IMG/VR virus record: IMGVR_UViG_3300042482_001698 | Span: 1 to 64,000 of that record | From: a virus | DNA length: 64,000 nucleotides | Direction: 5' to 3' (one strand) | In this document: positions 4,352 through 62,341 of the stretch, piece after piece | How positions within the stretch are numbered: the stretch's first letter is position 1 | How the letters are laid out: every line of letters starts with the position of its first letter | The notes under the pieces: model-generated | Seen by the model: only the letters and a program-made list of their open reading frames with translations | Database searches by the model: none | Told to the model about the DNA's origin: nothing | Program-made: the position numbers and the translations under genes

Positions 4352-4630
4352 ATGTTGAGTTTAAAACAAATAAATGATGTTTGCTTGTCAAATGATTTAA
4401 CTTATAGGAAATGTCGTTATTTGTGTCAAGATGAAAGCGACAGGTCAAAATTTTATTGTTTAAAGTTATCTGTTAAGGGACAAAAGATTGATAGAGAAAT
4501 AGACATATATGTCGATAATTTAAAAGCCAAAGGGAAATCTATCATTCAAGACAATTTGCCTTTAGGAGACAATTGCTCTGGTTATCCTATGTTGCGATAT
4601 TTGCAGCAGGGTTATGATCAGAAGAATTAA
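4352..4630 (+). CDS. Hypothetical Cys-rich protein
   Basis: ORF in the operon; CRYL/FYCLK/DNCSGY. Confidence 0.65.
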   Translation: MLSLKQINDVCLSNDLTYRKCRYLCQDESDRSKFYCLKLSVKGQKIDREIDIYVDNLKAKGKSIIQDNLPLGDNCSGYPMLRYLQQGYDQKN

Positions 4631-5127
4631 ATTTCTTCAATTCTTTTTTTAATTAGATCGTAAACATTTTTCCCTTGATTGATTTTTATGGCACTTTTAA
4701 ATATACTTTCATTAAGTGTGGCATTGTTGAATCTAGCAATTTCTATTGCCATAACTTCGGTTGTTTTTTCGCTTTTGATTGCTCGATCACGGTAGTAAAA
4801 CAAAAACATAGCTATGACGATGATGGCGAAAACAAATATCAATGCCCCATCTCCTTGAATGATTTGAATGCCAGTATTCTCATTGCGTGAAACTGCGGCA
4901 TTTATGTTGACTAGGCCGCTTTGTATCTCTTTCAGTTTACTGTTTTGAGCAGTTATATCTTGCCTAATTTTAGCAAGTTCCAGCATTAGCCCATTTTGAT
5001 TAGTTCGTATATCCTCTATTTTACCACTTTTATTTTCAATTTTTGGATTGTTTCTTGGGTTGAAGTTAGCGCATCCTGCCAAGCTTATCGAGATTGAAGT
5101 AATTATGATGATTAAAAATTTTGACAT
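4627..5127 (-). CDS. Lipoprotein with coiled coil and C-proximal TM helix
   Basis: Lipobox LAGC, strong AGGAGG RBS, TM ALIFVFAIIVIAMFLFYY. Confidence 0.75.
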   Translation of the reverse strand: MSKFLIIIITSISISLAGCANFNPRNNPKIENKSGKIEDIRTNQNGLMLELAKIRQDITAQNSKLKEIQSGLVNINAAVSRNENTGIQIIQGDGALIFVFAIIVIAMFLFYYRDRAIKSEKTTEVMAIEIARFNNATLNESIFKSAIKINQGKNVYDLIKKRIEEI

Positions 5128-5213
5128 GATTCCTCCTTTCTATCTATTTACAATTTACTGTTTTCCACATATGCTAGTACGGTCTTGTTCAATCGCTGGA
5201 GGGATTTGGCGTT

Positions 5214-5645
5214 ATGGATTACAAGGATGTTGGGTCATTAGATTTCGATGATTTTGAGAACGACGATCTTTCGTTAAATGAAAACGATAAGATTGTTAGT
5301 GAATTTAAGTGCAATGCTAAGTCATTAGCGAAGCAGTATGTCGAGCAATTTTTCAAGGATAAATCTTTACATATTGGTGGAAAAATACCGAATAAGTTTT
5401 TGCACAATGAAAAAAGAATTTCAATGATTTTGAACTATACTGTTTGTGATGGCATAGATCATTCTATAAAAGCTTTAGCAATGACATATCCAGAAATGGC
5501 AAATGATATAAATCAAAAGGTTAGTCGTGATAGTGAGTTGATCAAAGAAGTTCTAGTTAATATTGGTAATGCTAGAATTCCGAAAGAATTTGCTGGTGGT
5601 ATTTTATGTGTTTATTTAGAACTTATTGAAGGTGTTGATTTTTGA
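5214..5645 (+). CDS. Hypothetical protein
   Basis: 143-aa ORF with RBS. Confidence 0.7.
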   Translation: MDYKDVGSLDFDDFENDDLSLNENDKIVSEFKCNAKSLAKQYVEQFFKDKSLHIGGKIPNKFLHNEKRISMILNYTVCDGIDHSIKALAMTYPEMANDINQKVSRDSELIKEVLVNIGNARIPKEFAGGILCVYLELIEGVDF

Positions 5646-5956
5646 GTCGTGATTTATTTTTGTTGGGAAGGCAGTTTGATTTTTATGAACTGCCTAAAGA
5701 AAAAAAGTACCTCCTGAATTATTTTGACACGCCAATTCAGGAGGCTTTTCTTAAATATTTTTTTGTTTTTGGAGACTATAAAAACTTCACTGATCACACG
5801 GGAAATGTAGTTCAAATGCGATGGTTGAAGGTTTTACATGAAAAATTAATTACAATTGAAAAAGCTCATAAAGAAGCTCGTGCCAATATGGATATGGCTG
5901 GTTTAGTTGATATTGAAAAAGGAAAATTAAAATTTAGTAAAAAAAGTTCTAAATAG
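5642..5956 (+). CDS. Hypothetical protein
   Basis: TTG start overlapping the previous stop. Confidence 0.7.
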   Translation: MSRDLFLLGRQFDFYELPKEKKYLLNYFDTPIQEAFLKYFFVFGDYKNFTDHTGNVVQMRWLKVLHEKLITIEKAHKEARANMDMAGLVDIEKGKLKFSKKSSK

Positions 5957-8558: not shown

Positions 8559-9113
8559 ATGAATATGAATAATGGAAATAAGTTCAACAAGGAAAGTCGT
8601 GATGATCAAAACAGAATTAATTGGCAGATAAGAGTACCACAAGTCAGAGTTGTCCATGACGATGAACAGCTTGGCATAATGTCAACAGAACAGGCAAGAA
8701 AAATTGCAATGGATCAAGGTCTTGATCTTGTTGAAATCGCTTCAACTGCAAAGCCACCAGTTTGTAGAATAATGGATTACGGTCGTTATAAATACGAACA
8801 AAACTTAAAGAAAAAAGAAACTGCTAAAAAACAAAGAGAATCACAGGCTCAAATAAAAGAAATTAGATTGCGTCCTGCAATTGCCAATCATGATGTAGAA
8901 ACAAAAGTCAATCAAGCCAAAAAGTTTTTAGAAGAAGGATGTAAAGTTCAATTTAATCTTCAATTTAAAGGTTATCGTGAATTAGGCCATAAAGAGCAAG
9001 GTTTTAGCGTGATGAAAAAGATCGTTGAACTCGTAGAGCAGTTTGGTATTGTTGAAAAGCAACCAACTATGGAAGGCAATAGAATTATATGCTTTTTTAC
9101 GCCCAAGGCCTGA
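8559..9113 (+). CDS. infC: Translation initiation factor IF-3
   Basis: RINWQIRVPQVRVV, LDLVEIA, PPVCRIMDYGRYKYE, IKEIRLRP; both domains present. Confidence 0.96.
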   Translation: MNMNNGNKFNKESRDDQNRINWQIRVPQVRVVHDDEQLGIMSTEQARKIAMDQGLDLVEIASTAKPPVCRIMDYGRYKYEQNLKKKETAKKQRESQAQIKEIRLRPAIANHDVETKVNQAKKFLEEGCKVQFNLQFKGYRELGHKEQGFSVMKKIVELVEQFGIVEKQPTMEGNRIICFFTPKA

Positions 9114-10330
9114 TGGATAATTTCATGAAAAACGAAATTCTCAATTGTAAAGTCTTTGATGTTCAGAATGAGTTTAATCGTCGTTTGTATTATAACCAAC
9201 AAAAAATTATTCCATCAAATCCTCCCCTTATTCTCAGAATAATTCATGATGCAAGTCAAGAGTTGCTTGAATTTGCATTTGGGCATTTTGGTAAAAAATT
9301 GGGTTATCTTGCCAGTATTCTTGACATGACACATCCAGATTTAGTTTCAATTTTTGATGGTAGTTTTTCCGATGATCAAGAGTTTTCAAAACAATGTGTT
9401 CAGTTTCTTGCTATGGCAGAATATGCTAAAAACAATGATTTAAATCATATTTTTCCACTTCTTGGATCGCTTCTTATTAAAGAATCTTTAGACAAAAATA
9501 TTGTTCGTAAAATTGATTCTATCAGTTGCAATAAATCTTATGCAAGAATGATATTGAATTCTGATGAACGTGAAGCTATTAGATTTTCTAAAAAAATGCA
9601 AACCATTGATTTGCAAGCTTTTTACAAGAAAGGCGAAGAAGCATGGAATTCTCAGCCTGATAATTTCAAACAATTCATTCGTTATGATGCGGCTTACTTG
9701 CGTGAATTAAAGCAAGCAGAGAGAAAAATGAAGCGTTATCAGGAGTTGGGCTGTCATAGTCTTGCTTCAGAAATATGTAAAAGTATTGATTTGTTTCGTG
9801 AAAACATGGAACAAGCTTATTATGGTTTTAACCGTATAACAATGACCAGTGCCGCAGTAATTTTGGCAAAATCATTAGGATATTCATTTAATCCTTCTTA
9901 CCAATTGTCGGTAGGCGGTCATGTAATGCGTGTGGAAGCACAAGTAACTATAAATCGTTCTTTCTTTACTGATTATTATTTTGATTCATCTTTGGTTGTT
10001 GACGCAAATTATCATTATGATCCAAAGGTTTATCCATTTCATGAATTGAAAGAAATAGCTTCTCCTGAAGTTATGCATACAATTAATATGTTGGAGAAGT
10101 TTCCAGAAGCAAACGATAAGCCAATATTTGATCATTTTGGAGTAATTGTTCCAACAATTGCTTATAAAAATAAAATGTTCAATAATGAAAATGGTATTTT
10201 GCAAGATTATGAAAATTTAGAAGATGCCACTAGGGATTTGGATAAGATATTCATTAAGAAAAAGTTTTTTTATCCAATCATTGTTGGTGAAAAAGATGGT
10301 AAGTGTTTCTTTATTTGCTATTGGACTTGA
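9113..10330 (+). CDS. Hypothetical protein
   Basis: ~405-aa ORF coupled to the infC stop (TGATG). Confidence 0.75.
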   Translation: MDNFMKNEILNCKVFDVQNEFNRRLYYNQQKIIPSNPPLILRIIHDASQELLEFAFGHFGKKLGYLASILDMTHPDLVSIFDGSFSDDQEFSKQCVQFLAMAEYAKNNDLNHIFPLLGSLLIKESLDKNIVRKIDSISCNKSYARMILNSDEREAIRFSKKMQTIDLQAFYKKGEEAWNSQPDNFKQFIRYDAAYLRELKQAERKMKRYQELGCHSLASEICKSIDLFRENMEQAYYGFNRITMTSAAVILAKSLGYSFNPSYQLSVGGHVMRVEAQVTINRSFFTDYYFDSSLVVDANYHYDPKVYPFHELKEIASPEVMHTINMLEKFPEANDKPIFDHFGVIVPTIAYKNKMFNNENGILQDYENLEDATRDLDKIFIKKKFFYPIIVGEKDGKCFFICYWT

Positions 10331-10339
10331 GGTTTTGCA

Positions 10340-10591
10340 ATGCTTTATAATTTAACAAAAGAAGAACTTCTTGAATTTGCACATATGATTTATGAGCAAT
10401 CTGTGAATGGCTACCTAGATCTGAAAGAAGGTACTTGTCACAAGTTGTTGGTAAATTTTCTAACAAACAAGAAAACTTCTATCCCAGATACTAATGTAAA
10501 CATGAGTACCAATTTTGTGGACACAAATCAGATTTTTAACTCTGATGTTTTCACAGTAACGGAAAGTTTTATCATCAATCAAACTCATTGA
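10340..10591 (+). CDS. Hypothetical protein
   Basis: ORF with GAGG RBS. Confidence 0.65.
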   Translation: MLYNLTKEELLEFAHMIYEQSVNGYLDLKEGTCHKLLVNFLTNKKTSIPDTNVNMSTNFVDTNQIFNSDVFTVTESFIINQTH

Positions 10592-10615
10592 GTTTGTAAA
10601 TTTACGGGGATAATT

Positions 10616-10987
10616 ATGTCGAAGAGTAAGATTCTTACACCTATGGGTTCAATTTATGATTCCACCATTATTGGCAGTGGAGCAAAAGTTCCTAAAATCA
10701 AATCTGTTAAGCCAACTGGCTCACAGGTTCTTATTGAATTTTTGACATCTCAGGAAATGCTTGGGACAAGTCTGGCTGTTAATGAAAAAACAGATTTGAA
10801 AGTTCCTTTGCAAGGTTATGTTCGTTCTGTAGGTCCTAACTTCAAGTCATCAGATTATGGCTTTAATATAGGCGACAGAGTCACTGTTTCAGGTCCCGGC
10901 ATTCATGTCCCTAATTGGGACAACATTCATCGTGATCGATTCTTGATGGAGCCTTCTTCAATCAAAGGTGTGATAATAGAAGAATGA
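10616..10987 (+). CDS. GroES/Cpn10-like co-chaperonin
   Basis: VKPTGSQVLIE...QGYVRSVGP...IGDRV...IKGVI; adjacent to dnaJ. Confidence 0.65.
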   Translation: MSKSKILTPMGSIYDSTIIGSGAKVPKIKSVKPTGSQVLIEFLTSQEMLGTSLAVNEKTDLKVPLQGYVRSVGPNFKSSDYGFNIGDRVTVSGPGIHVPNWDNIHRDRFLMEPSSIKGVIIEE

Positions 10988-12051
10988 AAGACCCTTATGC
11001 CGTTCTAGGCGTTCCTAAAAATGCAACAAAAGATGATATAGTCAGGGCATACCGTAAGGGTGCCCTGAAGCATCATCCTGATAAAAATCCCGGCGATTCT
11101 GAAGCCGATGTTAGATTTCGTGAAATTCAAGAATCTTATGATATTTTAATTAATGATAATAAACGTGCCGAATATGATAGCGTTGGACCCTCAATGCATT
11201 TCCGCAGAAGAGGATTTGAAGGCGGTTCGTTTAATGGTTCCTTTGGCGACGTAATGAATGATTTTTTTCAGCACAGTACATTTCGTGGAAGAAATCTTAC
11301 AATCAGATTGGAAATTGATCTCCAAGAAGTCTATACAGGTTGCGATAAAGATTTAATTGTCAAAATGAAAAATACTTGTACCACTTGCAAAGGTCAAGGT
11401 CAGGTGAGCAATGAAGCTTGTGGAAATTGTAATGGAGAAGGTTTCACCAAAGTCAATAACGCTCCTTTTGAATTTAGAACAAATTGCTCTGTGTGCAATG
11501 GTCTTGGAAAAATAAATCCAATACTATGCGTTGATTGCAATGGTACGGGATTGCTCTCTGGCTACAAAGAAAAGAATATAAAAATTCAAATTCCATGTGG
11601 CATTGAAAGTGGAATGAATTTGAAAATTAGTGGTCAAGGCGAAGAATCGCTTCGTGGTGGAAAGTCTGGTGACTTAATTGTTCATGTTTTGGTTCGTGAA
11701 CATGAATGTTTTGATCGTGATGGAATTGATTTGTCGATTGATGTTCCAGTGAGTTATAGCCAATTGGTTTTAGGGTGTGATCTTTTGGTTCCTACCATTA
11801 CAGATGAAATGATTACGGTAAAAATACCAGAAGGAACTCAAAGTCACGCCAAATTCAAATTGCGAGGCAGAGGATTGCAACTGCCCAATGGAATATTGGG
11901 AGACATGTATGTTTCCGTAAAATTAGAAGTACCTAAGAAAATATCAAATGAATATATGCAATCAATAAAAAAAATCGAAGAATATGAAAAAACAACTATC
12001 GGTGAGCGTAGAGAAAAATGGATTAAAATTATCAATAAAAAACGTAAATAA
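10984..12051 (+). CDS. dnaJ: Chaperone DnaJ
   Basis: J-domain HPD, G/F region, four CxxCxGxG repeats, C-terminal domain. Confidence 0.95.
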   Translation: MKDPYAVLGVPKNATKDDIVRAYRKGALKHHPDKNPGDSEADVRFREIQESYDILINDNKRAEYDSVGPSMHFRRRGFEGGSFNGSFGDVMNDFFQHSTFRGRNLTIRLEIDLQEVYTGCDKDLIVKMKNTCTTCKGQGQVSNEACGNCNGEGFTKVNNAPFEFRTNCSVCNGLGKINPILCVDCNGTGLLSGYKEKNIKIQIPCGIESGMNLKISGQGEESLRGGKSGDLIVHVLVREHECFDRDGIDLSIDVPVSYSQLVLGCDLLVPTITDEMITVKIPEGTQSHAKFKLRGRGLQLPNGILGDMYVSVKLEVPKKISNEYMQSIKKIEEYEKTTIGERREKWIKIINKKRK

Positions 12052-13294: not shown

Positions 13295-13762
13295 ATGCAC
13301 GGGAACAAAATACCAGTTAAAATCATTGCTGATGATCCTATGTTTTTACCAAAATATAAAACATTTGGATCAGCAGCATGTGATTTAGTTGCAAATATTC
13401 CCACTAATGATGCTGGTCATACCTTTATCAGCGTTATGCCTAATCAAACTGAAGTTATTGATGTTGGTTTTAGAATGTCGATACCATTTGGTTGGGAAGT
13501 TCAAATCCGCATTAGAAGCAGCTTTGCCATACAAGGTCTTCAAGTGACTAACAGTCCCGGCACCATCGATAGTGATTATCAAGGCAGAATCAAGGTAATT
13601 GTTAATGGTGCAAGTAAAAATATTATCAGAATAAATCACGGTGATCGGTTTGCTCAAATGCTAATTAAACCAATTTGGCAAGTTGATTGGATTGAAACAG
13701 ATGCTTTTGATCCAACAGATCGTGGCGATAAAGGATTTGGATCAACAGGAATTAAATCATGA
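13295..13762 (+). CDS. dut: Trimeric dUTPase
   Basis: GSAACDL, RSS, NSPGTIDSDYQG, GDRFAQ, RGDKGFGSTG; start uncertain. Confidence 0.95.
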   Translation: MHGNKIPVKIIADDPMFLPKYKTFGSAACDLVANIPTNDAGHTFISVMPNQTEVIDVGFRMSIPFGWEVQIRIRSSFAIQGLQVTNSPGTIDSDYQGRIKVIVNGASKNIIRINHGDRFAQMLIKPIWQVDWIETDAFDPTDRGDKGFGSTGIKS

Positions 13763-13968
13763 AAATATTTTTAGTTGTGAGCGTGGCTAGACAAATCGAT
13801 GGCGAATATGTCGTAGTAAAAGCCGAAAAGGCATTTAAAGAATCAACAAAGGCATCAGAATTCGCAAATGGTCTTGCGAAGCGTTATGCTGAAACAATAA
13901 ACACACCATCAGGACCGTTGCAATGTGTGTGTGAACGTGGCGTTCAAGAAGTTGATCTAGAAGAATAA
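13759..13968 (+). CDS. Hypothetical protein
   Basis: ATGA overlap with dut. Confidence 0.7.
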   Translation: MKIFLVVSVARQIDGEYVVVKAEKAFKESTKASEFANGLAKRYAETINTPSGPLQCVCERGVQEVDLEE

Positions 13969-13979
13969 AAGGAGCTATT

Positions 13980-14708
13980 ATGTCTGTTCACAATCCACTC
14001 GAAGGCGACCGTCCAGAAATGACGGTGAAGCTTCATGAAAATTCAGACGATCATATTTCGATTATTATCGTTCATAAAGATAGGCCAGAATATTTGAATA
14101 TATGCCTTCAATCCATTGCTGTTACTAGCTTTAACAATAATTACGAAATTATTGTTGTTGATAATGGCAGTGGCAAAGAAACTCAAGATTTTCTTAATGA
14201 TATTGAAAAAGAAGTTAAAGTTGTTCGTAATCAAAAGAATTTGTATTGGTCGGCAGCTTGCAACAAAGGCGTGCAAGCAGCCGATAAAAATAGTAAGTAT
14301 TTTATCTTCATGCATTGCGATGTGGTGATATTGAATCCAGCTTGGATTGATTTGATGATTAATGTTTCTGAGGCACAGAAATCTGGATTCGTTGGCGTTG
14401 ACACACAATCATACATGATGGGCAATCAGAAGGTTGACTTCTTACAAGATCATCTGTTACTATTTACTAGAGAATCATGGAATGATATTGGCCCTTGGCC
14501 AGAACAACTTCCTCAAATTGGGCCTTCTTTTATTTTAACACTTAGGGCGCAACAAAAGGGGCAAAGACCTCAAATTATGAAGAATACAATTATTCATCAC
14601 TATAAAATTTTTAGTATGGATATTTCAGAATATGAAAGAATGACCGAACAGGCAATGACAACTCTTCCTAAACTCATGACAGAAATAAATTCTAAGGCAG
14701 TAAAATGA
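13980..14708 (+). CDS. Glycosyltransferase family 2
   Basis: ISIIIV...EIIVVDNGS...NKG...FMHCDV. Confidence 0.85.
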   Translation: MSVHNPLEGDRPEMTVKLHENSDDHISIIIVHKDRPEYLNICLQSIAVTSFNNNYEIIVVDNGSGKETQDFLNDIEKEVKVVRNQKNLYWSAACNKGVQAADKNSKYFIFMHCDVVILNPAWIDLMINVSEAQKSGFVGVDTQSYMMGNQKVDFLQDHLLLFTRESWNDIGPWPEQLPQIGPSFILTLRAQQKGQRPQIMKNTIIHHYKIFSMDISEYERMTEQAMTTLPKLMTEINSKAVK

Positions 14709-15978: not shown

Positions 15979-17541
15979 ATGACTATGGAATCAACTATCA
16001 ATTTCCCGAATGGAATCAATAATGGCAAACCAATTCCTGTTGGAATTGTTTCTGGAAACATTTCTGTTTCATCTGGAGCAATTTCTCTTTACACATCAAG
16101 CGGAATAATAAGCAACAGCAATCCTCTTCCTGTTGATATTGGCGGCGGAACAGTTAACATCAATGTTAATTCAGGCACAAATCTTAATGTTTCTGTTACA
16201 TCAGGTCTGTTTGCGATTTTATCAGGTAGGGTAAGCGTTTCATCTGGTAACACTTCAATTTACACAGCAAGCGGAACAGTTAGCCAATCAAATCCTTTCC
16301 CTGTATCAATTTCATCTGGTGCATTTTCAAATAATACTATTCCAGTTAGTTTTGCTGCTGGAACAAGTGATGCATTTGGAAGACTTAGGGTGAGCAATCC
16401 TTTTACCATTTTTGACAGTCAACATCGTTATCAAGTCAATGACAAATGGAATTATCAAACAACTGCTGGTGGTTCAACTTCTTACGATACAAACGGTAGC
16501 CTAGTGAACTTGAACACAAGTTTAGCATCTGGTGCTCAAGTAATTGCTGAAACCAAAAGGGTTATGCCTTATCAACCCGGCAAATCACTTCTTATCTACA
16601 ATACATTTACAATGTCATCTGTACAAGAAACTTTGAGACAAAGAATTGGTTATTTCGGCGAACAGAATGGAATTTATTTCGAGGTTGATGGGGAATCAGT
16701 AAGTTTTGTGAAAAGAAGTTATGTTAGTGGTAGCGTTGTTGAAACAAAAGCTACTAGAGGATCAGGATGGAATGTTGACAACCTTAACGGCAATGGACCT
16801 AGTGGATATAATATTTCAAATTACAGCAGTTCTTTTATCTTCTATATTGAAATAGAATGGCTCGGAGTAGGCGATGTTCGTGTTGGATTTGTTTTGAATG
16901 GTGCTTATGTTCCATGTCACGTTTTCAAACACACTCCAGCAGGAGGAAGCCCTATAAGCGGAACATATATGACAACCGCTTGTTTGCCTCTTAGGGCTGA
17001 AATTACAAATAAAGGACCAATTACTAATTCTGGTAATTTCAAACAAATTTGCAATAGTGTTATTTCAGAAGGTGGCTACGAAGGATTTAGCAGAAGATAT
17101 AATGTAGATTTAGGAACAACCCCTAAAAATCTTACAAATGATGATGAGTTATATCCAATTATTTCTTTGCGTCTCGCTTCAGGAAGATTAGATTCAATTA
17201 TTGTTCCTTCAAATTTGAATGCAATTGTGACAAGCAATCAAGATGTTCAATATAGAATTATTTTGGACGGCACCACTAGTGGCGCAGTTTGGACTACACA
17301 TTATAATGGCAATGTTCAATATGATACTTCAGCTACATCATTGGCAAGTGGAAGTGGAACAAATGTCATTGGCGGATATATCAACAAGCAAGGATCTATT
17401 GATATTACCAGCCTGAATCAATTTAACTTTCAAATAGGAAGATTACTAGATGGAACAAGTCAAGTGTTGACAATTGCTATGGCTCCTACATCAGCAAACA
17501 CGAAAGTTTTAGCTGATTTATCATGGTTTGAAATTATTTGA
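15979..17541 (+). CDS. Probable virion structural protein
   Basis: S/G-rich N-terminal repeats followed by the DAFGRLRVS.P.T.FDS domain common in large-phage virion proteins. Confidence 0.65.
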   Translation: MTMESTINFPNGINNGKPIPVGIVSGNISVSSGAISLYTSSGIISNSNPLPVDIGGGTVNINVNSGTNLNVSVTSGLFAILSGRVSVSSGNTSIYTASGTVSQSNPFPVSISSGAFSNNTIPVSFAAGTSDAFGRLRVSNPFTIFDSQHRYQVNDKWNYQTTAGGSTSYDTNGSLVNLNTSLASGAQVIAETKRVMPYQPGKSLLIYNTFTMSSVQETLRQRIGYFGEQNGIYFEVDGESVSFVKRSYVSGSVVETKATRGSGWNVDNLNGNGPSGYNISNYSSSFIFYIEIEWLGVGDVRVGFVLNGAYVPCHVFKHTPAGGSPISGTYMTTACLPLRAEITNKGPITNSGNFKQICNSVISEGGYEGFSRRYNVDLGTTPKNLTNDDELYPIISLRLASGRLDSIIVPSNLNAIVTSNQDVQYRIILDGTTSGAVWTTHYNGNVQYDTSATSLASGSGTNVIGGYINKQGSIDITSLNQFNFQIGRLLDGTSQVLTIAMAPTSANTKVLADLSWFEII

Positions 17542-55919: not shown

Positions 55920-57533
55920 TCACCTGTTCGTATTCCAATCGCCTATTGTGGGTGGAAGACCAGCCCATTTGCGAGCATCCTTCCATGTTTTGGGTTTGAA
56001 ATCTTTAGGGAAAAAGCTGGCTGGTTCTTTTTTCGTATCTTTAGATGGTTCACGCTGAATTACAGGTTCAGGTTCAACAATGCTTTGGAAGTACTCTGCA
56101 TGAGGAATAAATTCGTCAAACATGTATATTTTGTTGTTAAAAAACACAATAGTTTTTAATGGGTCACGAAGTTCTCCATCTTCTTTTAATTTTTTGCAAG
56201 CTGCTGCTGCAACTGATATGGGTGTTTGAGGCCCCTGATAAATTGATATTAAATCAATTTGATCGAAAATTCTTTTGACCTTATTGGAAATAGCGTAAAA
56301 ATTTATAGTTTCAGGCCAATTTGTCTGATCATCTCCATATAAAAACTTTTTTAAATTATTTTCTGTAACTGTGAATTTTAATTGATCAAAATCAGTCCTA
56401 TAGCCTATCCTGCCAACAGCAGAAACAACATCGCCAAATCTAGAATAAATTCCATTATAAGCTTTGATAAGTTTTCTTCCTATATTTTCGTCTTTACGGG
56501 TTTCATTGTCAATTAATTGTCTGTGATATGTTTTATTTTCTCCTAAGTAATTTGTGTCTGTGGATTCAAGATAAATAAATGGTTTATGAGCCGCTGTAAG
56601 CTCCCCATCTATAATTTCAGCAGCTGAAATATCAATGATTTCGTCTGGTTTTTTGAATATTTCTAAACCATTTTCTATAGTAGGAAAATATTCATCAGCT
56701 TCTCGCAAATTAAACCATTTCTGATGGTTTGTGTTCCAATCACCTATTGTGGGTGGAAGACCTACCCATTTTTTGGCTTGTGGCCATGTTTCTGGCTTGA
56801 AATCCTTCGGATAAAGACTCATAGGTTTTTTAATATCTTTAGGTGGTTCAACATTAATTACAGGTTCTGGTTTATAAGGAGGCACATAATAAGAAATAAA
56901 TTCACTGAATATGTATGCTTTATTACCAAAAACAACAATGGTTTTTAATGGATCAATAATTTTACCATCTTGTTCTAATTTTTTACATGCTGCTGCACCA
57001 ACTGAGATGGTAGGGTGTCTAGAGGTAGCATAAATTGCTATTAAATCAATTTGATTGAATATTCTTTTGAATGAATCGCCTATAGCGTCTAAATTCACAC
57101 GTTCAGGCCAATTTGTCTGATCCTCTCCATATAAAAATCTTTTGATATTATCATTTGGAAGCCTTCTTTTTAATTTATCAAAATTAATCCTATAACCTAT
57201 CCTGCCAACAGCAGCAACCACATCAGGACGTGTTTGGTAAATTCCATCATAAGCTTTTCTAAGTTGTAGACCTATATTTGCGTCTTCTCGAATTTTTGCA
57301 TAAATTAAATTATCATGATAACCTTCAGTTATGCCCGAATAAATCGTGTCTGTAGATTCTAGATAAATAAATGGAACATGGGTATCTGTAAGATTTCCAT
57401 CTATAATCGAAGCGGCTGAAATCATAACATTGTCATCTGGCTTCATGAATATTTCTAAACCATTTTTTATATCAGGGGAATACTCATCAGCTTCTCTTAG
57501 ATCAAACCATTTATAAAAAGATAGATTATTCAT
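55920..57533 (-). CDS. Tandem-duplicated protein, each half starting with a CTS-like motif
   Basis: Two ~268-aa units, each running KWF.LREADEY...GLPPTIGDWNTN. Confidence 0.8.
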   Translation of the reverse strand: MNNLSFYKWFDLREADEYSPDIKNGLEIFMKPDDNVMISAASIIDGNLTDTHVPFIYLESTDTIYSGITEGYHDNLIYAKIREDANIGLQLRKAYDGIYQTRPDVVAAVGRIGYRINFDKLKRRLPNDNIKRFLYGEDQTNWPERVNLDAIGDSFKRIFNQIDLIAIYATSRHPTISVGAAACKKLEQDGKIIDPLKTIVVFGNKAYIFSEFISYYVPPYKPEPVINVEPPKDIKKPMSLYPKDFKPETWPQAKKWVGLPPTIGDWNTNHQKWFNLREADEYFPTIENGLEIFKKPDEIIDISAAEIIDGELTAAHKPFIYLESTDTNYLGENKTYHRQLIDNETRKDENIGRKLIKAYNGIYSRFGDVVSAVGRIGYRTDFDQLKFTVTENNLKKFLYGDDQTNWPETINFYAISNKVKRIFDQIDLISIYQGPQTPISVAAAACKKLKEDGELRDPLKTIVFFNNKIYMFDEFIPHAEYFQSIVEPEPVIQREPSKDTKKEPASFFPKDFKPKTWKDARKWAGLPPTIGDWNTNR

Positions 57534-57540
57534 ATTTACC

Positions 57541-57783
57541 TCAAATTAATTCAAGAACTTTTGGTTCTTTGCCAATATAAGTTTCATAACATCTTATTGC
57601 CTTACTTCCATTAAGGGTGAATACATCACCATGTTTTAATGGTTTGTTCCAATAAGGAATAAGAACTTCAGCATTTTTTAATCCCAAAATAATATTCTCC
57701 ATGCTGTTCGGCAATGTTTGACTCGCCAAAGCAACAGGATCAATAGTATTGACACGAAAAGTGTATTCAGGAAAATTATCCAT
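57541..57783 (-). CDS. Stand-alone copy of the shared ~78-aa module
   Basis: YTFRVN.ID...SQ.LP...KPLKHGD.FTL.G.KAI.C...YIGK.PK.LE. Confidence 0.75.
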   Translation of the reverse strand: MDNFPEYTFRVNTIDPVALASQTLPNSMENIILGLKNAEVLIPYWNKPLKHGDVFTLNGSKAIRCYETYIGKEPKVLELI

Positions 57784-57892
57784 ATTTTTAATCATTAAAA
57801 ACCTTGAAACACAATTTGTTTTAAAAAATTATTTTTTTTACTAGCTTCACAATACAATATTATGTATCACAACAAAAATATTTTGGTCAAAA

Positions 57893-58342
57893 ATGAAAGC
57901 AAATCAAGAGTATTGGCGTAGCCCACAACCTCATCCACTTAATCCTAATACGAATGATGCAAAAATATATAAAGAATATATGCTTGATGGATCTACATTG
58001 CTTCTTGGATGCACAAAAAAGCTGGTTTCCATATCAGATTATCAGATGGATTTAGATCCTTGGCTCAAAGGTCCAAATGTCATAAAGGGCGATTGGATAG
58101 AGAACAATCAAGATTTTGTCAATATTATCGGCGATGGAGTTATGAATCTCACCAAAGATTTAGCAAATGGTCTTTTGAAAATGGCAAAAAAACATTCTAA
58201 AAACTTAGTCGTCAGAAGCTTCAAAAGAAAAGAATCTTGGATGAGAGTTGCAGATTATTTTCCCGAAGCTAAAGATTTTAAGATAACTCCATATATCTCA
58301 AGACAACTAATTGATTATAATTTTTATGTTTGGAGATTTTGA
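57893..58342 (+). CDS. Methyltransferase-like protein
   Basis: LLLGCT...IKGDW...NIIGDG; coupled to the next gene. Confidence 0.45.
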   Translation: MKANQEYWRSPQPHPLNPNTNDAKIYKEYMLDGSTLLLGCTKKLVSISDYQMDLDPWLKGPNVIKGDWIENNQDFVNIIGDGVMNLTKDLANGLLKMAKKHSKNLVVRSFKRKESWMRVADYFPEAKDFKITPYISRQLIDYNFYVWRF

Positions 58343-59376
58343 TGCATAATCCGAATGTTGATGTTAAGAATATAATAGACAAATTTGAAAAAAGCCAATG
58401 GATTTACAGCCCCAATTTTGATTCAATTAAACATTTCCCTGTTATTACGAGAGAAGAATTAAGAAATATGCCAATGGAAAAAGGCATGTTTGAATGTAGC
58501 ACTTCAGGCTCAACAGGCGAATCTCTTAAAGTACAAAAAAGTTATGCAGATTATGTCTGGTACACGGCTACGAACGTAAGGGAAATGATCTGGAGGAAAT
58601 GGGATTTCACAAAGAATATTGCCGTGATAAGGCCTGATTCAAAAATAAGAGACTTGAGTGGGTGGGGCATTCCACAAAACATTGCTCCAATACAAGGGAA
58701 TACATATCAAATAAATTTTGCACCTATTTCTCAAATCCAATCTTGGCTTGAGGAAAAGAATCCTCACTACATTCACAGTAGGCCATCTATTCTTGCTGAA
58801 CTAGATTTGACTAAAATACCAAACCTTATTGATGTTAAAAGCACAGGTGAACTCGGTGGGACAATGTTCAGCAGCGAAGAGTGCGGAACGATTTCAATTC
58901 AATGTCCTGACAATCCTTCCGTCCATCATGTGATGGAAAACCAAATCGTCGAAGTAGACGAATCTGGAAACATGATCATTACGACTATGACAAACAAATA
59001 CGTCAAAAGATATAAAAATGGCGATTGCATTGAGCTTGGAGAATGTAATTGTGGTAGAAAATTACAAACAATCAAAAAAATAAATGGTCGTGTAAGAAAT
59101 ATGTTCGTTCTGCCAAATGGTGACAAAAAGTGGCCATTGATTGGAAGTAAAGTCTATTATGAACAATTTGGCATTAAAAGGTATAAAGTAATTCAAAAAT
59201 CAATCGAAGAATTAGAGCTTCATATTATTGCGGAAAATCTTGGAGAAAGAGAAAAAGAGCTTCAAGCCGTTGTTAAAAAATGGCTTGAAGCAGAAGTAAA
59301 TGTGACAATTAAATATGTTGAATCATTCCCTAATTATAAGCATGAAGAATTCATCAGCTTAGTCAACTATCTCTAA
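58342..59376 (+). CDS. Phenylacetate-CoA ligase/F390-like adenylate-forming enzyme
   Basis: STSGSTG, TGE, SSEECG, RYKNGD, CNCGR...I.GR. Confidence 0.8.
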   Translation: MHNPNVDVKNIIDKFEKSQWIYSPNFDSIKHFPVITREELRNMPMEKGMFECSTSGSTGESLKVQKSYADYVWYTATNVREMIWRKWDFTKNIAVIRPDSKIRDLSGWGIPQNIAPIQGNTYQINFAPISQIQSWLEEKNPHYIHSRPSILAELDLTKIPNLIDVKSTGELGGTMFSSEECGTISIQCPDNPSVHHVMENQIVEVDESGNMIITTMTNKYVKRYKNGDCIELGECNCGRKLQTIKKINGRVRNMFVLPNGDKKWPLIGSKVYYEQFGIKRYKVIQKSIEELELHIIAENLGEREKELQAVVKKWLEAEVNVTIKYVESFPNYKHEEFISLVNYL

Positions 59377-60363
59377 TATTTTTGGCAATTTACCAATATA
59401 TTGCTGACTGCACTTAATTGCTTTTTGACCATACAAAGTAAATGTATCACCATGCTTCAAAGGCTTATCGACATAAGGAACATAAACACTTTGATTTTCA
59501 AGATTAAGAATAATATGTTCTAAACTGTCTGGAAGATTTTGACTGACTATAGCCGTGTAATCTATAACATTAACTCTAAATGTAATTGTTGGATTAAGAT
59601 AGGTTAGCCTGCTTGGTTCAACAATAAGGTCTAAAAAAGCCTGAGCAATAATTTGCCGCTCAGAATTGTCCATGTATTCGTTTTCGTCTTTTGCAATTAG
59701 TAGAAAATAAATTTCATCAATTCCAGTTAAATTTTGCAAACAATGATCATCATGCTCATTGTCGGCATCATAAAGATGAACAATTCCACTTCCGTTTCCG
59801 GGTACAAAAATAAAATGATTGATAGATGGATCGTTAGAGTCATAAACTTGCTTATTAAAACATGTAAATTGGCGACCTTTACTTGTCAAAGTAAACACAT
59901 TAACTTCATAATCACCATTGCCATCAGCGCCAATATCTCCTGTGATTGAAAATTCTTCAATATCAATACCAGTTGCCGCCATCACAAACATGTCTGGATA
60001 CATATTTGTAAAATATTGGCTCCCAGCACCAAAATATGAACTGCCATCGGCAATTATTCCATCCATGGGAGGATCAGTGTAATCTCCACTTCCTTCTGCA
60101 ACTGCAACAGTATGAGTGTATGGAATGGAATTAGCACGGGCAGTATCATTATCTACACCATCATTATCCATATTGGCATAAAGCTGAGTTAGATTTGTAT
60201 TTAGGCAATTTGCATCATCATACATGTCACCGCCACCATCAGAAATGTTGGTGTTAACTCCATCATCTTCTGGTTCGTCGCTGAAATAATATGGATTGAT
60301 AATGTTTTCAGTGATTGTTTGATATCCAAGATTCAATCTTGTCAAAACTGCTTCAATACCCAT
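59359..60363 (-). CDS. Acidic beta-rich protein with the shared C-terminal module
   Basis: ISDGGGDMYD..N.LNT...GDIGADG domain plus TFRVNVIDYTAIVSQNLPD...PKILEIVD. Confidence 0.75.
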   Translation of the reverse strand: MGIEAVLTRLNLGYQTITENIINPYYFSDEPEDDGVNTNISDGGGDMYDDANCLNTNLTQLYANMDNDGVDNDTARANSIPYTHTVAVAEGSGDYTDPPMDGIIADGSSYFGAGSQYFTNMYPDMFVMAATGIDIEEFSITGDIGADGNGDYEVNVFTLTSKGRQFTCFNKQVYDSNDPSINHFIFVPGNGSGIVHLYDADNEHDDHCLQNLTGIDEIYFLLIAKDENEYMDNSERQIIAQAFLDLIVEPSRLTYLNPTITFRVNVIDYTAIVSQNLPDSLEHIILNLENQSVYVPYVDKPLKHGDTFTLYGQKAIKCSQQYIGKLPKILEIVD

Positions 60364-60665
60364 AATATTCCTTTTTCAATGTGATTTACAAATTCACTGT
60401 CTCAATATTTTTTGCAATGATTAATAATTCATCAGCTTAGTTAACTAGCTCTAGTATTTTCGGTAACTTGCCAATATACTGCTGATAACACTTAATTGCT
60501 TTTTGTCCATACAAGGTAAATGTATCGCCATGCTTCAAAGGTTTATCAACATAAGAAACATAAACAGTTTGATTTTCAAGATTAAGAACAATATGTTCTA
60601 TTCTATCTGGAAGATTCTGACTGACTATAGCCGTGTAATCTATAACATTAACTCTAAATGTGTAA
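59359..60665 (-). repeat. ~230-bp near-identical direct repeat (59359-~59585 and 60437-~60665)
   Basis: Encodes the shared module; differences are mostly synonymous. Confidence 0.9.
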
Positions 60666-61753
60666 GCTGGTAATGGATAATTTGTACTTGTATCATCCGT
60701 TATGGCCATAGTACTGCCGTAGCCTCCGGCTGAAACGAATTTCCAATTTTTGTCTGAAGCAATTTGAATTGGTGAAGAACTGTCATTTTCAGTTCCGTTT
60801 CCTAATTTACCGCTGTAGTTGTCTCCCCATACCCATAAAGTACCATTAGACTTTAATGCGACAACACTACTGGTTCCAGCAGAAGCACTTGCCCAATTAG
60901 AAGCATTTCCGACTTGAACTGGAGACGATACTATTGCTGTATATCCGTTCCCTAATGCTCCGCTGTCTCCCTCGCCCCATGCCCAGAGAGTGCCATTTTC
61001 TTTCAGTGCTACTGCATTATATAAACTGACAGAAACACTTGACCAATTACTTAGACTTCCAACTTGAGCAGGCGAAGACAAACTAATGGTATCGCCGTTT
61101 CCCAAAATTCCAAAATTTCCTTCTCCCCAAGACCAAAGAGTTCCATTGTTTTTTATGGCAAAAGAAGATAAAGCTGAAGCAGAAATTTGCTTCCAATCAT
61201 TATCTGTTGTTATTTGAACTGGGGAAGAATATGTAAATGTGTCATTTTGACCCAATTGTCCACTACTACCTTCTCCCCATCCCCAAAGAGTTCCATCTGT
61301 TTTGATTGCTAATGCATGGGCACCTGTATTTGAAATTTGATCCCAATTAGAATCACTTCCAACCTGCACAGGAGATGATCTAGCATCGGTATCATTTAAT
61401 CCAAGAATACCAGAATAATTAACTCCCCATGTCCACAAAGTGCCATCTGATCTAATAGCAGAATTATTGAAAAATCCTGCTGAAATTTCTTTCCATGAAA
61501 AACTTCCTATTTGAACTGGAGATGAATAACTAATGTTTTCGTTATTTCCAATTGATCCTCCTGAGCCTTCGCCCCAAGACCAAAGTGTTCCATTTGTTTT
61601 AATGCCAAGAGTATGAGTGGAACTGGTAGAAACTTTTGCCCAAACGCCTCCAGATAGTATGTTTTGAACTGGAGAAGATCTGTTAATAACAGTTCCATCT
61701 CCTAATACACCAGAATTGTTAATCCCCCACGCCCAAAGCTCATTGCCAGCCAT
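60437..61753 (-). CDS. RCC1/BLIP-II beta-propeller protein with the shared C-terminal module
   Basis: About 7 repeats of GTLW.WG...G.LG...SSPVQ plus the same C-terminal module. Confidence 0.85.
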   Translation of the reverse strand: MAGNELWAWGINNSGVLGDGTVINRSSPVQNILSGGVWAKVSTSSTHTLGIKTNGTLWSWGEGSGGSIGNNENISYSSPVQIGSFSWKEISAGFFNNSAIRSDGTLWTWGVNYSGILGLNDTDARSSPVQVGSDSNWDQISNTGAHALAIKTDGTLWGWGEGSSGQLGQNDTFTYSSPVQITTDNDWKQISASALSSFAIKNNGTLWSWGEGNFGILGNGDTISLSSPAQVGSLSNWSSVSVSLYNAVALKENGTLWAWGEGDSGALGNGYTAIVSSPVQVGNASNWASASAGTSSVVALKSNGTLWVWGDNYSGKLGNGTENDSSSPIQIASDKNWKFVSAGGYGSTMAITDDTSTNYPLPAYTFRVNVIDYTAIVSQNLPDRIEHIVLNLENQTVYVSYVDKPLKHGDTFTLYGQKAIKCYQQYIGKLPKILELVN

Positions 61754-61762
61754 AATGCTCCT

Positions 61763-62341
61763 TTACTTTATTTTCTTGAAAACAGAATATGGATAATTTT
61801 CATTATATTTCTTGTTATCTTTTCCAAATTTTACAAATGTGCCGCTATCATTTTTCACTGATAATGGTTCAAATGAATCAGCAATACTTGTATCTGTCAT
61901 CTTGAAATTTGAATTATAAATTACAAAATAACCATCCTTGTTGAGCTTATTGGACAATTCAATAACAGCTTTCTCAAATTTAGAGAAAGGATAAATTTCA
62001 CTGCAATCTTCTTTATTTTCCAATTGTGGATATCGACAGAAAACAGATAATGCAAAAATAAAATCAAATGTACCATGACCTTCAACCGTTGTATCATAAG
62101 ATATTTTATCACTATTTTTCATTCTATTAGCAACTTTTATAAGTCTTTTATTAATATCAACTCCAACAATTTCCGATTCTGGGAAGTAATTTTTTAATGT
62201 TTTGCATTCTAATCCAATTGAACATCCGAAAGACATAATTCGGATTTTTCCTGTTTTTAATTTTGAACAGTAATCAAACAAATCAGGATAACGATTGTTT
62301 TTCGTTATTCCAATATATTGATGTGTTTTATTTCTATCCAT
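61763..62341 (-). CDS. Class I SAM-dependent methyltransferase
   Basis: IMSFGCSIG.E, IVGVDIN, FDFIFALSV. Confidence 0.8.
   Translation of the reverse strand: MDRNKTHQYIGITKNNRYPDLFDYCSKLKTGKIRIMSFGCSIGLECKTLKNYFPESEIVGVDINKRLIKVANRMKNSDKISYDTTVEGHGTFDFIFALSVFCRYPQLENKEDCSEIYPFSKFEKAVIELSNKLNKDGYFVIYNSNFKMTDTSIADSFEPLSVKNDSGTFVKFGKDNKKYNENYPYSVFKKIK

Follow-up and report, generated by a model that had tools for sequence, protein, structure and literature searches.

The 64,000-nucleotide stretch of viral DNA analyzed here (positions 1 to 64,000 of the IMG/VR record IMGVR_UViG_3300042482_001698, hereafter the window) carries three minus-strand open reading frames (ORFs), at 57541-57795, 59359-60363 and 60437-61753, that have a module of approximately 78 amino acids (aa) in common. 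Judged by sequence comparison, this module represents a previously unnamed, phage-restricted domain family that is undescribed in the libraries and literature searched. We favor the view, at a probability of roughly 45%, that it is a virion-docking adaptor working like the anchors of the phage proteins Hoc and pb10 although unrelated to them, which would make it in kind a decoration- or fibre-anchor-type module. The view is based on extracellular-type cargo domains that lack export signals, on the restriction of the family to phage contigs, on two loci in which a module gene directly follows the major capsid gene, on the pattern of a conserved anchor joined to a variable head, and on close functional similarities to Hoc and pb10. 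The module would then be a non-covalent plug docking variable, outward-facing domains on the phage particle, probably on the capsid surface.

The presence of one module in three genes, claimed in a preliminary description of the window, was confirmed with a profile of the three copies, which matched these three places and no other in the 83,754-bp record of the window (an IMG/VR viral contig rated 19% complete, referred to as G000; E-values of 1.5e-53, 2.6e-53 and 2.4e-49), far beyond chance, and 43 of the approximately 80 columns of their alignment are invariant. The stand-alone gene (57541-57795; 84 aa; isoelectric point, pI, 6.55) contains the module at residues 5-84 (profile E 2.4e-49) and has orthologues that are 96-78% identical in L035, L036, L037/38 and L039 (L-numbers denote fetched viral or metagenome loci and P-numbers representative protein clusters). 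This gene had been placed at 57541-57783; the gene stands, but its start does not, as the ORF reaches 57795 and position 57783 corresponds to a second in-frame ATG. The acidic protein (59359-60363; 334 aa, pI 4.06) consists of an N-terminal cargo at about residues 25-250, a short linker and the module (residues 256-334, nucleotides 59362-59598, minus strand; hidden Markov model, HMM, E 1.6e-36), while 60437-61753 encodes a protein of 438 aa (pI 4.77) in which an RCC1-type seven-bladed propeller is followed by a C-terminal module (residues ~359-438, nucleotides 60440-60679, minus strand; HMM domain 361-437, E 1.2e-34).

The two fused copies had been called near-identical at the DNA level, which is overstated given an identity of 86.8% over 234 nucleotides (nt). 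They are clearly under purifying selection, with rates of synonymous (dS) and non-synonymous (dN) substitution of 0.44 and 0.084 and a dN/dS of 0.19; the idea of mainly synonymous changes thus holds as regards selection but not as a raw count, only about half of the differences being synonymous (16.25 against 14.75 non-synonymous). The greater divergence attributed to the stand-alone copy was borne out by a protein identity of 56% and a saturated dS. Likeness between the fused copies runs in the DNA from ~240 nt before the stop codon to 17-20 nt past it, so that a 3' flank of ~17 nt is nearly identical behind the acidic (59342-59358, minus strand) and RCC1 (60420-60436, minus strand) copies. 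The complement of the former encodes the last residues of the convergent plus-strand ORF 58330-59376, whereas the latter is non-coding, and we therefore infer that module and flank were copied from the acidic gene onto the RCC1 gene.

A search of 1.84 billion representative proteins with the module profile yielded 108 clusters at E <= 1e-3, of which 39 reached E <= 1e-10, so that the family comprises at least 108 clusters; the ten clusters looked up were all metagenomic, with names that were generic at most. Pooling the search matches with the ORFs of the fetched loci gave 139 distinct module sequences, in which the module is N-terminal in 58, stand-alone in 41, C-terminal in 24 and internal in 16. 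The C-terminal placement emphasized in the preliminary description therefore describes both fused genes of the window but not the family, where the N-terminal position is commonest, and a maximum-likelihood tree of the modules requires at least 38 changes of position class. The module had been regarded as unrecognizable, and the stand-alone protein indeed had no match, enzymatic, cytoplasmic or other, in Pfam-A, PHROGs v4 or NCBIfam 20 at E <= 0.01 to 0.1. When 106 family members were compared with Pfam, only families of the partner domains were matched, and a full-text search of the literature, which was not exhaustive, did not find the module.

Gene contexts were drawn from IMG/VR and JGI metagenome loci, with carriers located in 13 and 32 loci, respectively. 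Among GenBank phages, neither blastn of the region nor tblastn with three different modules gave a match, a viral-contig search with an RCC1 fusion protein as query recovered RCC1 matches only, and two pattern scans of 185,579 prokaryote species genomes did not find the module. Five carrier records that were checked span 84-173 kb and are rated 19-40% complete (87-173 kb and 21-40% for the four besides G000), corresponding to genomes of ~360-520 kb. The carriers that could be placed are phage fragments, and the family looks restricted to phages. The ClpX protein of the window is closest (56%) to that of LR756511.1, a 595-kb uncultured phage. Moreover, about 20 lake-water metagenome runs from 20 coded studies contain the stretch almost word for word (>=96% of sampled words), and for this reason the window phage is considered a stable, recurrent freshwater population. 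None of the runs listed is an RNA run, which is no evidence in either direction. With respect to hosts, the minus strand of the huge-phage fragment L031 has a gene (13550-14500) for a DUF1559 protein whose sequence includes a prepilin-type N-methylation motif (1.8e-39 and 2.1e-9). Proteins of this DUF1559/prepilin type are greatly expanded in, and typical of, Planctomycetota, and the gene is no more than a lead to a host of that phylum.

A family search with a listing of N-terminal partners, as proposed in the preliminary description, revealed many cargos that differ among relatives. Among the 106 members, the Pfam partners were Laminin_G_3 (8), RCC1 (5) and PKD (5), together with He_PIG, cadherin, fn3, the DUF5122 propeller, GH43, BNR, SASA esterase, legume-type lectins and Hint, and judging by these assignments the Pfam-named partners are mostly lectin-, adhesion- or glycan-related and of extracellular type. 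Two further partners recur without a Pfam family, namely the acidic domain of the window and a beta-rich domain starting with an S-W-L-type motif. The suggestion of interchangeable adhesin-like cargos is thus well founded, in the sense of an autonomous mobile domain with many lectin- or adhesin-like partners. N-terminal modules begin at residues 1-15 in the sequences read by eye, some family representatives are small proteins composed of an LLLF-type motif, a Gly-rich stretch and the module, and no signal peptide was apparent by eye in the proteins read, including those with a C-terminal module. Adhesion-type domains without an export signal are usual in phage virion surface proteins.

The RCC1 cargo of the window (residues 6-346) was assigned with confidence, matching Pfam WD40_RLD (1e-64) and RCC1 (9.7e-59), with 219.6 bits for PF25390 against a cut-off of 150 and 196 bits over seven stretches for PF00415. 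An orthologue in L006 is 47% identical and has the same propeller-module junction; the module is C-terminal of the propeller in the window and in L006, N-terminal in L031, P0017 and P0027, and part of a three-part protein in P0073. The L006 orthologue (9995-11485, plus strand, on a 189-kb contig) bears in addition a Cys-rich C-terminal tail of ~55 aa, and a related tail in P0049 is the probable source of the single Pfam Stig1 match (2.3e-8) of the family scan. The acidic cargo had no sequence-family match and belongs to a family of ~12 clusters with invariant DGGxD, THT, YxTNxYP and DPxxxH motifs. Its structural model was best matched in VIA-align by the N-domain of a GH65 enzyme (7fe3_A; Z 8.9, 176 residues, root-mean-square deviation 3.9), followed by about 40 other glycan-enzyme domains at Z 6-8, with N-domains of GH94, GH116, GH92, PL and mutarotase proteins among them; the best matches are without exception carbohydrate-side domains of glycoside hydrolases, phosphorylases, lyases and mutarotases. 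These Z values are borderline by the tool's own standard. In Foldseek, 7fe3_A scored E 1.7e-3, and the best ESM Atlas score (0.77) was under the useful level. The acidic cargo is thus predicted, on borderline structural matches, to be a mutarotase-like beta-supersandwich resembling the carbohydrate side of GH65, GH94 and GH92 enzymes.

Comparison with close relatives indicates that the head and the anchor evolve at different rates. Between G000 and L004 the acidic protein is 85% identical in the cargo and 96% in the module, the RCC1 protein 74% and 88%, and the neighboring genes 86-97%; the cargo therefore changes faster than the module. The preliminary description had also anticipated cargo swapping by recombination, and sequence comparisons indicate that modules have indeed been exchanged between cargos: the acidic cargo of the window is about equally close to P0001 (83.6%) and to P0036 (82.8%; this protein bears an additional C-terminal domain), while the modules are 94.9% and 54.7% identical, respectively. 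The tree and the shared 3' flank point in the same direction. Window-type C-terminal modules attached to three unrelated cargos (RCC1, acidic and S-W-L) form one group in the tree, stand-alone copies form a separate, well-supported clade, and the modules of a single genome fall into different clades in L023, L060, L063 and L031. In L023 (9145-10255, plus strand), a 284-aa gene (S-W-L-type domain plus module) and a 94-aa stand-alone gene, with modules of different clades, overlap by 29 nt. Concerted evolution of the two fused copies was considered and rejected, as the orthologues group by gene across G000 and L022 (support 95-98), and at most one older conversion event between them is supported.

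Modeling with AlphaFold2 on a 40-sequence alignment predicts the module to be a small, compact and autonomous alpha/beta domain of five short strands and three helices in the order beta-alpha-alpha-beta-beta-beta-alpha-beta (predicted local distance difference test, pLDDT, 79; predicted template modeling score, pTM, 0.59), and the same elements were predicted in a model of the full-length acidic protein. The best-conserved stretch, L-K-H-G-D-x-F-T-L-x-G-x-x-A, forms, in the model, a hairpin that turns tightly at G-D and then a helix cap. A catalytic role of its K-H-G-D motif was rejected because the Lys and His are often replaced, and the motif is for the same reason read as structural. The model had nothing below E 0.19 in Foldseek against the PDB and BFVD, matches at noise level only in VIA-align (best Z 4.4 in the wide mode and 4.5, to a GINS B-domain, in the second mode; Z 4.1 for the lambda gpFI C-domain), and a best ESM Atlas score of 0.80, under the useful level.

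The genomic position of some module genes is in agreement with a role on the virion. In the fragments L033 and L075, relatives of LR756511.1 (whose capsid protein shares 75% identity with that of L033), a portal-like gene, a prohead protease (PHROG-annotated in L033 only, 1.7e-45), a scaffold-like gene and a gp23-type capsid gene (phrog_138, 1.7e-84, in L033; Pfam Gp23, 6.4e-84, in L075) are directly followed by a module gene, encoding a module-LamG protein of 297 aa in L033 and a module-LamG-PKD protein of 651 aa in L075. The position after the major capsid gene is a frequent site of decoration genes. Besides, the gene preceding a module gene encodes a virion structural protein (phrog_1645, 3e-101) in L034 and a collagen-like tail-fibre protein in L027. 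The post-capsid slot is variable within the huge-phage clade of L033, L075 and LR756511.1, and the portal-like proteins are only 34% identical at a capsid-protein identity of 77%.

Under the virion-docking reading, the plug would carry lectin-like beta-sandwiches, RCC1 propellers, strings of PKD or Ig-like domains, a glycan esterase or a glycosidase, on either of its sides, and stand-alone copies would fill the same kind of site cargo-free or co-assemble with fused paralogues. The window phage would display at least two acidic, putatively glycan-binding heads, the RCC1 propeller and the mutarotase-like supersandwich, on closely similar plugs, and would produce a bare, more divergent plug besides. 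As a conserved DNA cassette, the plug could be shifted between genes by recombination, which would thereby alter what is displayed.

Hoc, the closest functional parallel, binds the centre of gp23 hexamers. Its C-domain (residues 281-376 of T4 Hoc) is small like the module, ~80-96 aa, and conserved beside variable cargo, the module carriers L033 and L075 have a gp23-type capsid with the module gene directly after it, and the proteins of displayed type in the window are acidic. The G000 record, which is 19% complete, and four further carrier fragments contain no capsid gene. The Hoc capsid-binding domain, a beta-sheet with three helices, stays conserved next to variable Ig-like or other domains; it recurs at the N- or C-terminus of proteins with different cargos, a GDSL esterase among them, and one phage may have several versions (PMC10385173). 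The analogy with Hoc drawn in the preliminary description is accordingly sound as a functional likeness but does not extend to relatedness, since hhalign gave a probability of 0.06% against the T4 Hoc capsid-binding domain and no PHROG was matched. The Hoc chains (PDB 5vf3_Z and 8t1x) were not among the Foldseek and VIA-align matches listed for the module, and the Hoc fold is a four-stranded sheet with strands 2 and 3 parallel under a three-helix bundle, the module model having five short strands and three helices. The module is also more promiscuous (internal in 16 sequences, stand-alone in 41, with more than 10 cargo types), and its capsid binding is putative.

The anchor of pb10 from phage T5 has five helices and ~75 aa and is followed by an Ig-like domain, and anchor-only homologues occur in T5-like vibriophages (PMC5292684). 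Module proteins likewise include an N-terminal module followed by Ig- or fn3-like repeats (by eye) as well as stand-alone copies. The pb10 anchor, however, is all-alpha whereas the module is predicted to be alpha/beta with five strands, the pb10 motif F-G-x2-L-P is absent from the module consensus, and no sequence similarity was found in any library. Tail-fibre and receptor-binding proteins combine a conserved N-terminal adaptor with exchangeable distal domains, with recombination at the conserved part. The module resembles such adaptors in its N-terminal position in 58 of 139 sequences and in the adjoining tail-fibre gene of L027; unlike them, since adaptors are normally N-terminal only and part of trimeric fibres, it is also C-terminal, internal or alone, and the module proteins of the window contain no fibre-type repeats or trimerization motifs. 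By analogy only, the module recalls the dockerins of cellulosomes, short conserved modules at either end of many glycan-active cargos that serve scaffold assembly, but it has neither the calcium-binding dockerin repeat nor a signal peptide, no cohesin-like partner was identified, and it is phage-encoded.

Several observations weigh against virion docking. The complete 595-kb genome of LR756511.1 (L067) has an unrelated 212-aa gene in the post-capsid slot and genome-wide only a weak partial module match, so the module is accessory. The capsid proteins of L033 and L075 are 77% identical while their modules are only 32% identical, and the divergence of modules within one genome (those of the window share as little as 56%, and those of L023, L060, L063 and L031 fall into different clades) is awkward for a single shared docking site. 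Searches by fold and by sequence linked the module to no known domain that binds capsids or tails, and some module loci have neighbors that look by eye like replication genes. Furthermore, the window and most huge-phage module loci show glycan-synthesis (glycosyltransferase and sugar-epimerase), methyltransferase and ligase neighbors and no structural block. The last objection is softened by the phrog_1645 homologue of the window (15979-17541, plus strand, 520 aa, 1.4e-99), its one PHROG-annotated virion protein, which is itself isolated among glycosyltransferase, PhoH and amidoligase genes, indicating that structural genes are scattered in the window phage.

The divergence of paralogues within a genome would also be expected if the module were a self-associating hub that homo- or hetero-oligomerizes, such that bare and fused paralogues act as distinct subunits of multivalent lectin or adhesin complexes, on the virion or elsewhere. 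In ~6 of 9 distinct lineages, stand-alone and fused genes are within 8 kb of each other and often adjacent, as in L060 (93, 488 and 1666 aa), L063 (657 and 85 aa), L023/L037 (284 and 94 aa) and the window, and the 16 proteins with an internal module, such as P0087 and P0073, bear cargo on both sides. We nevertheless regard the hub as rather unlikely: in several lineages (L024, L028/L045/L047) the only stand-alone gene has no fused partner closer than 10 kb, and no coiled coil or known trimerization motif is apparent in the sequence. Self-association would be compatible with a virion adaptor and could be how the docking is built.

The many module loci in glycan-synthesis neighborhoods of these gene-rich phages (GT2, GT25, GT11, GDP-mannose dehydratase, HtrL_YibB, an RfaE-like kinase/adenylyltransferase, TylF methyltransferase and GT1/GT4), together with the prevalence of lectin-, adhesion- and glycan-related partners, could instead mean that the module binds a ligand on the host envelope or a glycan, in the manner of a cell-wall-binding domain or carbohydrate-binding module, and tethers its lectin and glycan-active enzyme partners either to the surface of the host or to a glycan made by the phage. 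This explanation appears improbable to us, since in an arms race it is usually the target-binding domain that varies, whereas here the module is conserved and the cargo variable; the cargos, moreover, are binding domains themselves, the proteins have no export signal, and the conserved hairpin, with its G-D turn, G..A helix cap and frequently replaced His and Lys, looks structural.

A second neighborhood feature, which virion docking leaves unexplained and which counts against it, is a pair of genes directly beside module genes. In the window (57893-59376, plus strand) the pair comprises a 149-aa protein (57893-58342), a recurrent neighbor of module genes with no Pfam, PHROG or NCBIfam match, and a candidate adenylate-forming enzyme of 348 aa (58330-59376) whose gene converges on the acidic-module gene with an overlap of 18 nt and invariably accompanies that of the 149-aa protein. 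The pair adjoins module genes in the G000 lineage, L074 (7671-9148), L041 (950-2444), L006 (11523-12997) and L057 (3603-5100), and homologues of the 149-aa protein were detected with jackhmmer beside module genes in these four loci and in L075. The L075 homologue (8903-9382; BLASTP 34% identity, E 5e-19) stands directly behind the post-capsid module gene, paired with a QueC-like PP-loop protein. The 348-aa enzyme is PaaK/F390-synthetase-like at sub-threshold scores: TIGR02304 of NCBIfam gave 2.5e-6, far under its cut-off, the match is confined to the C-terminal third (19-27 bits, with cut-offs at 250-700), the phenylacetate-CoA ligase 4r1l of the PDB was matched weakly (E 0.0079), and a Ser/Thr/Gly-rich motif occurs near residue 58 (by eye).

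This association raises the idea that the pair recognizes the module or uses it as an acceptor, and would modify or process module proteins post-translationally; the recurrence of the pair, the L075 arrangement and the location of the most conserved motif, in which Lys is frequent, on a predicted beta-hairpin turn could all be accommodated. We consider it highly improbable, because the pair is missing from most module loci, many members have Arg, Tyr, Val or His in place of the Lys, the ligase assignment falls far short of family thresholds, and PaaK-like ligases more usually use small carboxylates in glycan pathways.

If the module is a virion adaptor, it would be an uncatalogued and unusually promiscuous anchor with which huge phages alter their surface display by cassette exchange, it would offer a handle for finding surface and adhesion proteins in uncultured huge phages, most of whose genes are unannotated, and it might serve as a natural display tag tolerating fusion at either end. 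It would also tie together the glycan-synthesis islands, the RCC1- and LamG-type proteins and the conserved 149-aa and ligase pair, which recur jointly in these genomes. A more far-reaching picture, which we hold to be a long shot, is that huge freshwater phages, possibly of Planctomycetota-type hosts, bear an outer coat in which lectin, propeller and adhesin heads are exchangeable on one universal plug, made or matured with the phage glycan-synthesis genes and the ligase pair. In bacterial viruses, such a coat would correspond to the glycosylated fibrils that cover giant viruses, and recombination would reshuffle it as a natural "phage display" cassette. Were these interpretations wrong, the module would still be a well-defined phage-restricted domain of at least 108 clusters, worth a database entry.

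Other features surround the three module genes. Promoter-like sites were no commoner than in shuffled sequence (25 against 31.5 expected), and for this reason no operon structure is claimed, while terminator-like sites exceeded the shuffles (12 against 4.1). A class I S-adenosylmethionine methyltransferase gene (61763-62341, minus strand; Pfam Methyltransf_23/11/12, 4e-7 to 3e-6) ends 9 nt upstream of the RCC1-module start, and the same order is repeated in L006, where the methyltransferase is 52% identical. A 537-aa protein (55920-57533, minus strand), whose gene begins 8 nt beyond the end of the stand-alone module gene on the same strand, consists of two tandemly duplicated halves of ~265 aa (62.5% identical, E 1.8e-117); its N-terminal aromatic-rich motif reappears at the start of the second repeat and is therefore part of the repeated domain and not an N-terminal signal. 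The two genes are adjacent in L005 as well, yet L023 and L024 lack this arrangement; as it is confined to close relatives, the link of the 537-aa protein to the module is weak. Finally, the 51-kb phage-like metagenome contig L060 encodes a RuBisCO large-chain-like protein (4582-5766, minus strand; PF00016, 2.9e-32) in a sugar-nucleotide and glycosyltransferase block that adjoins three consecutive module genes.

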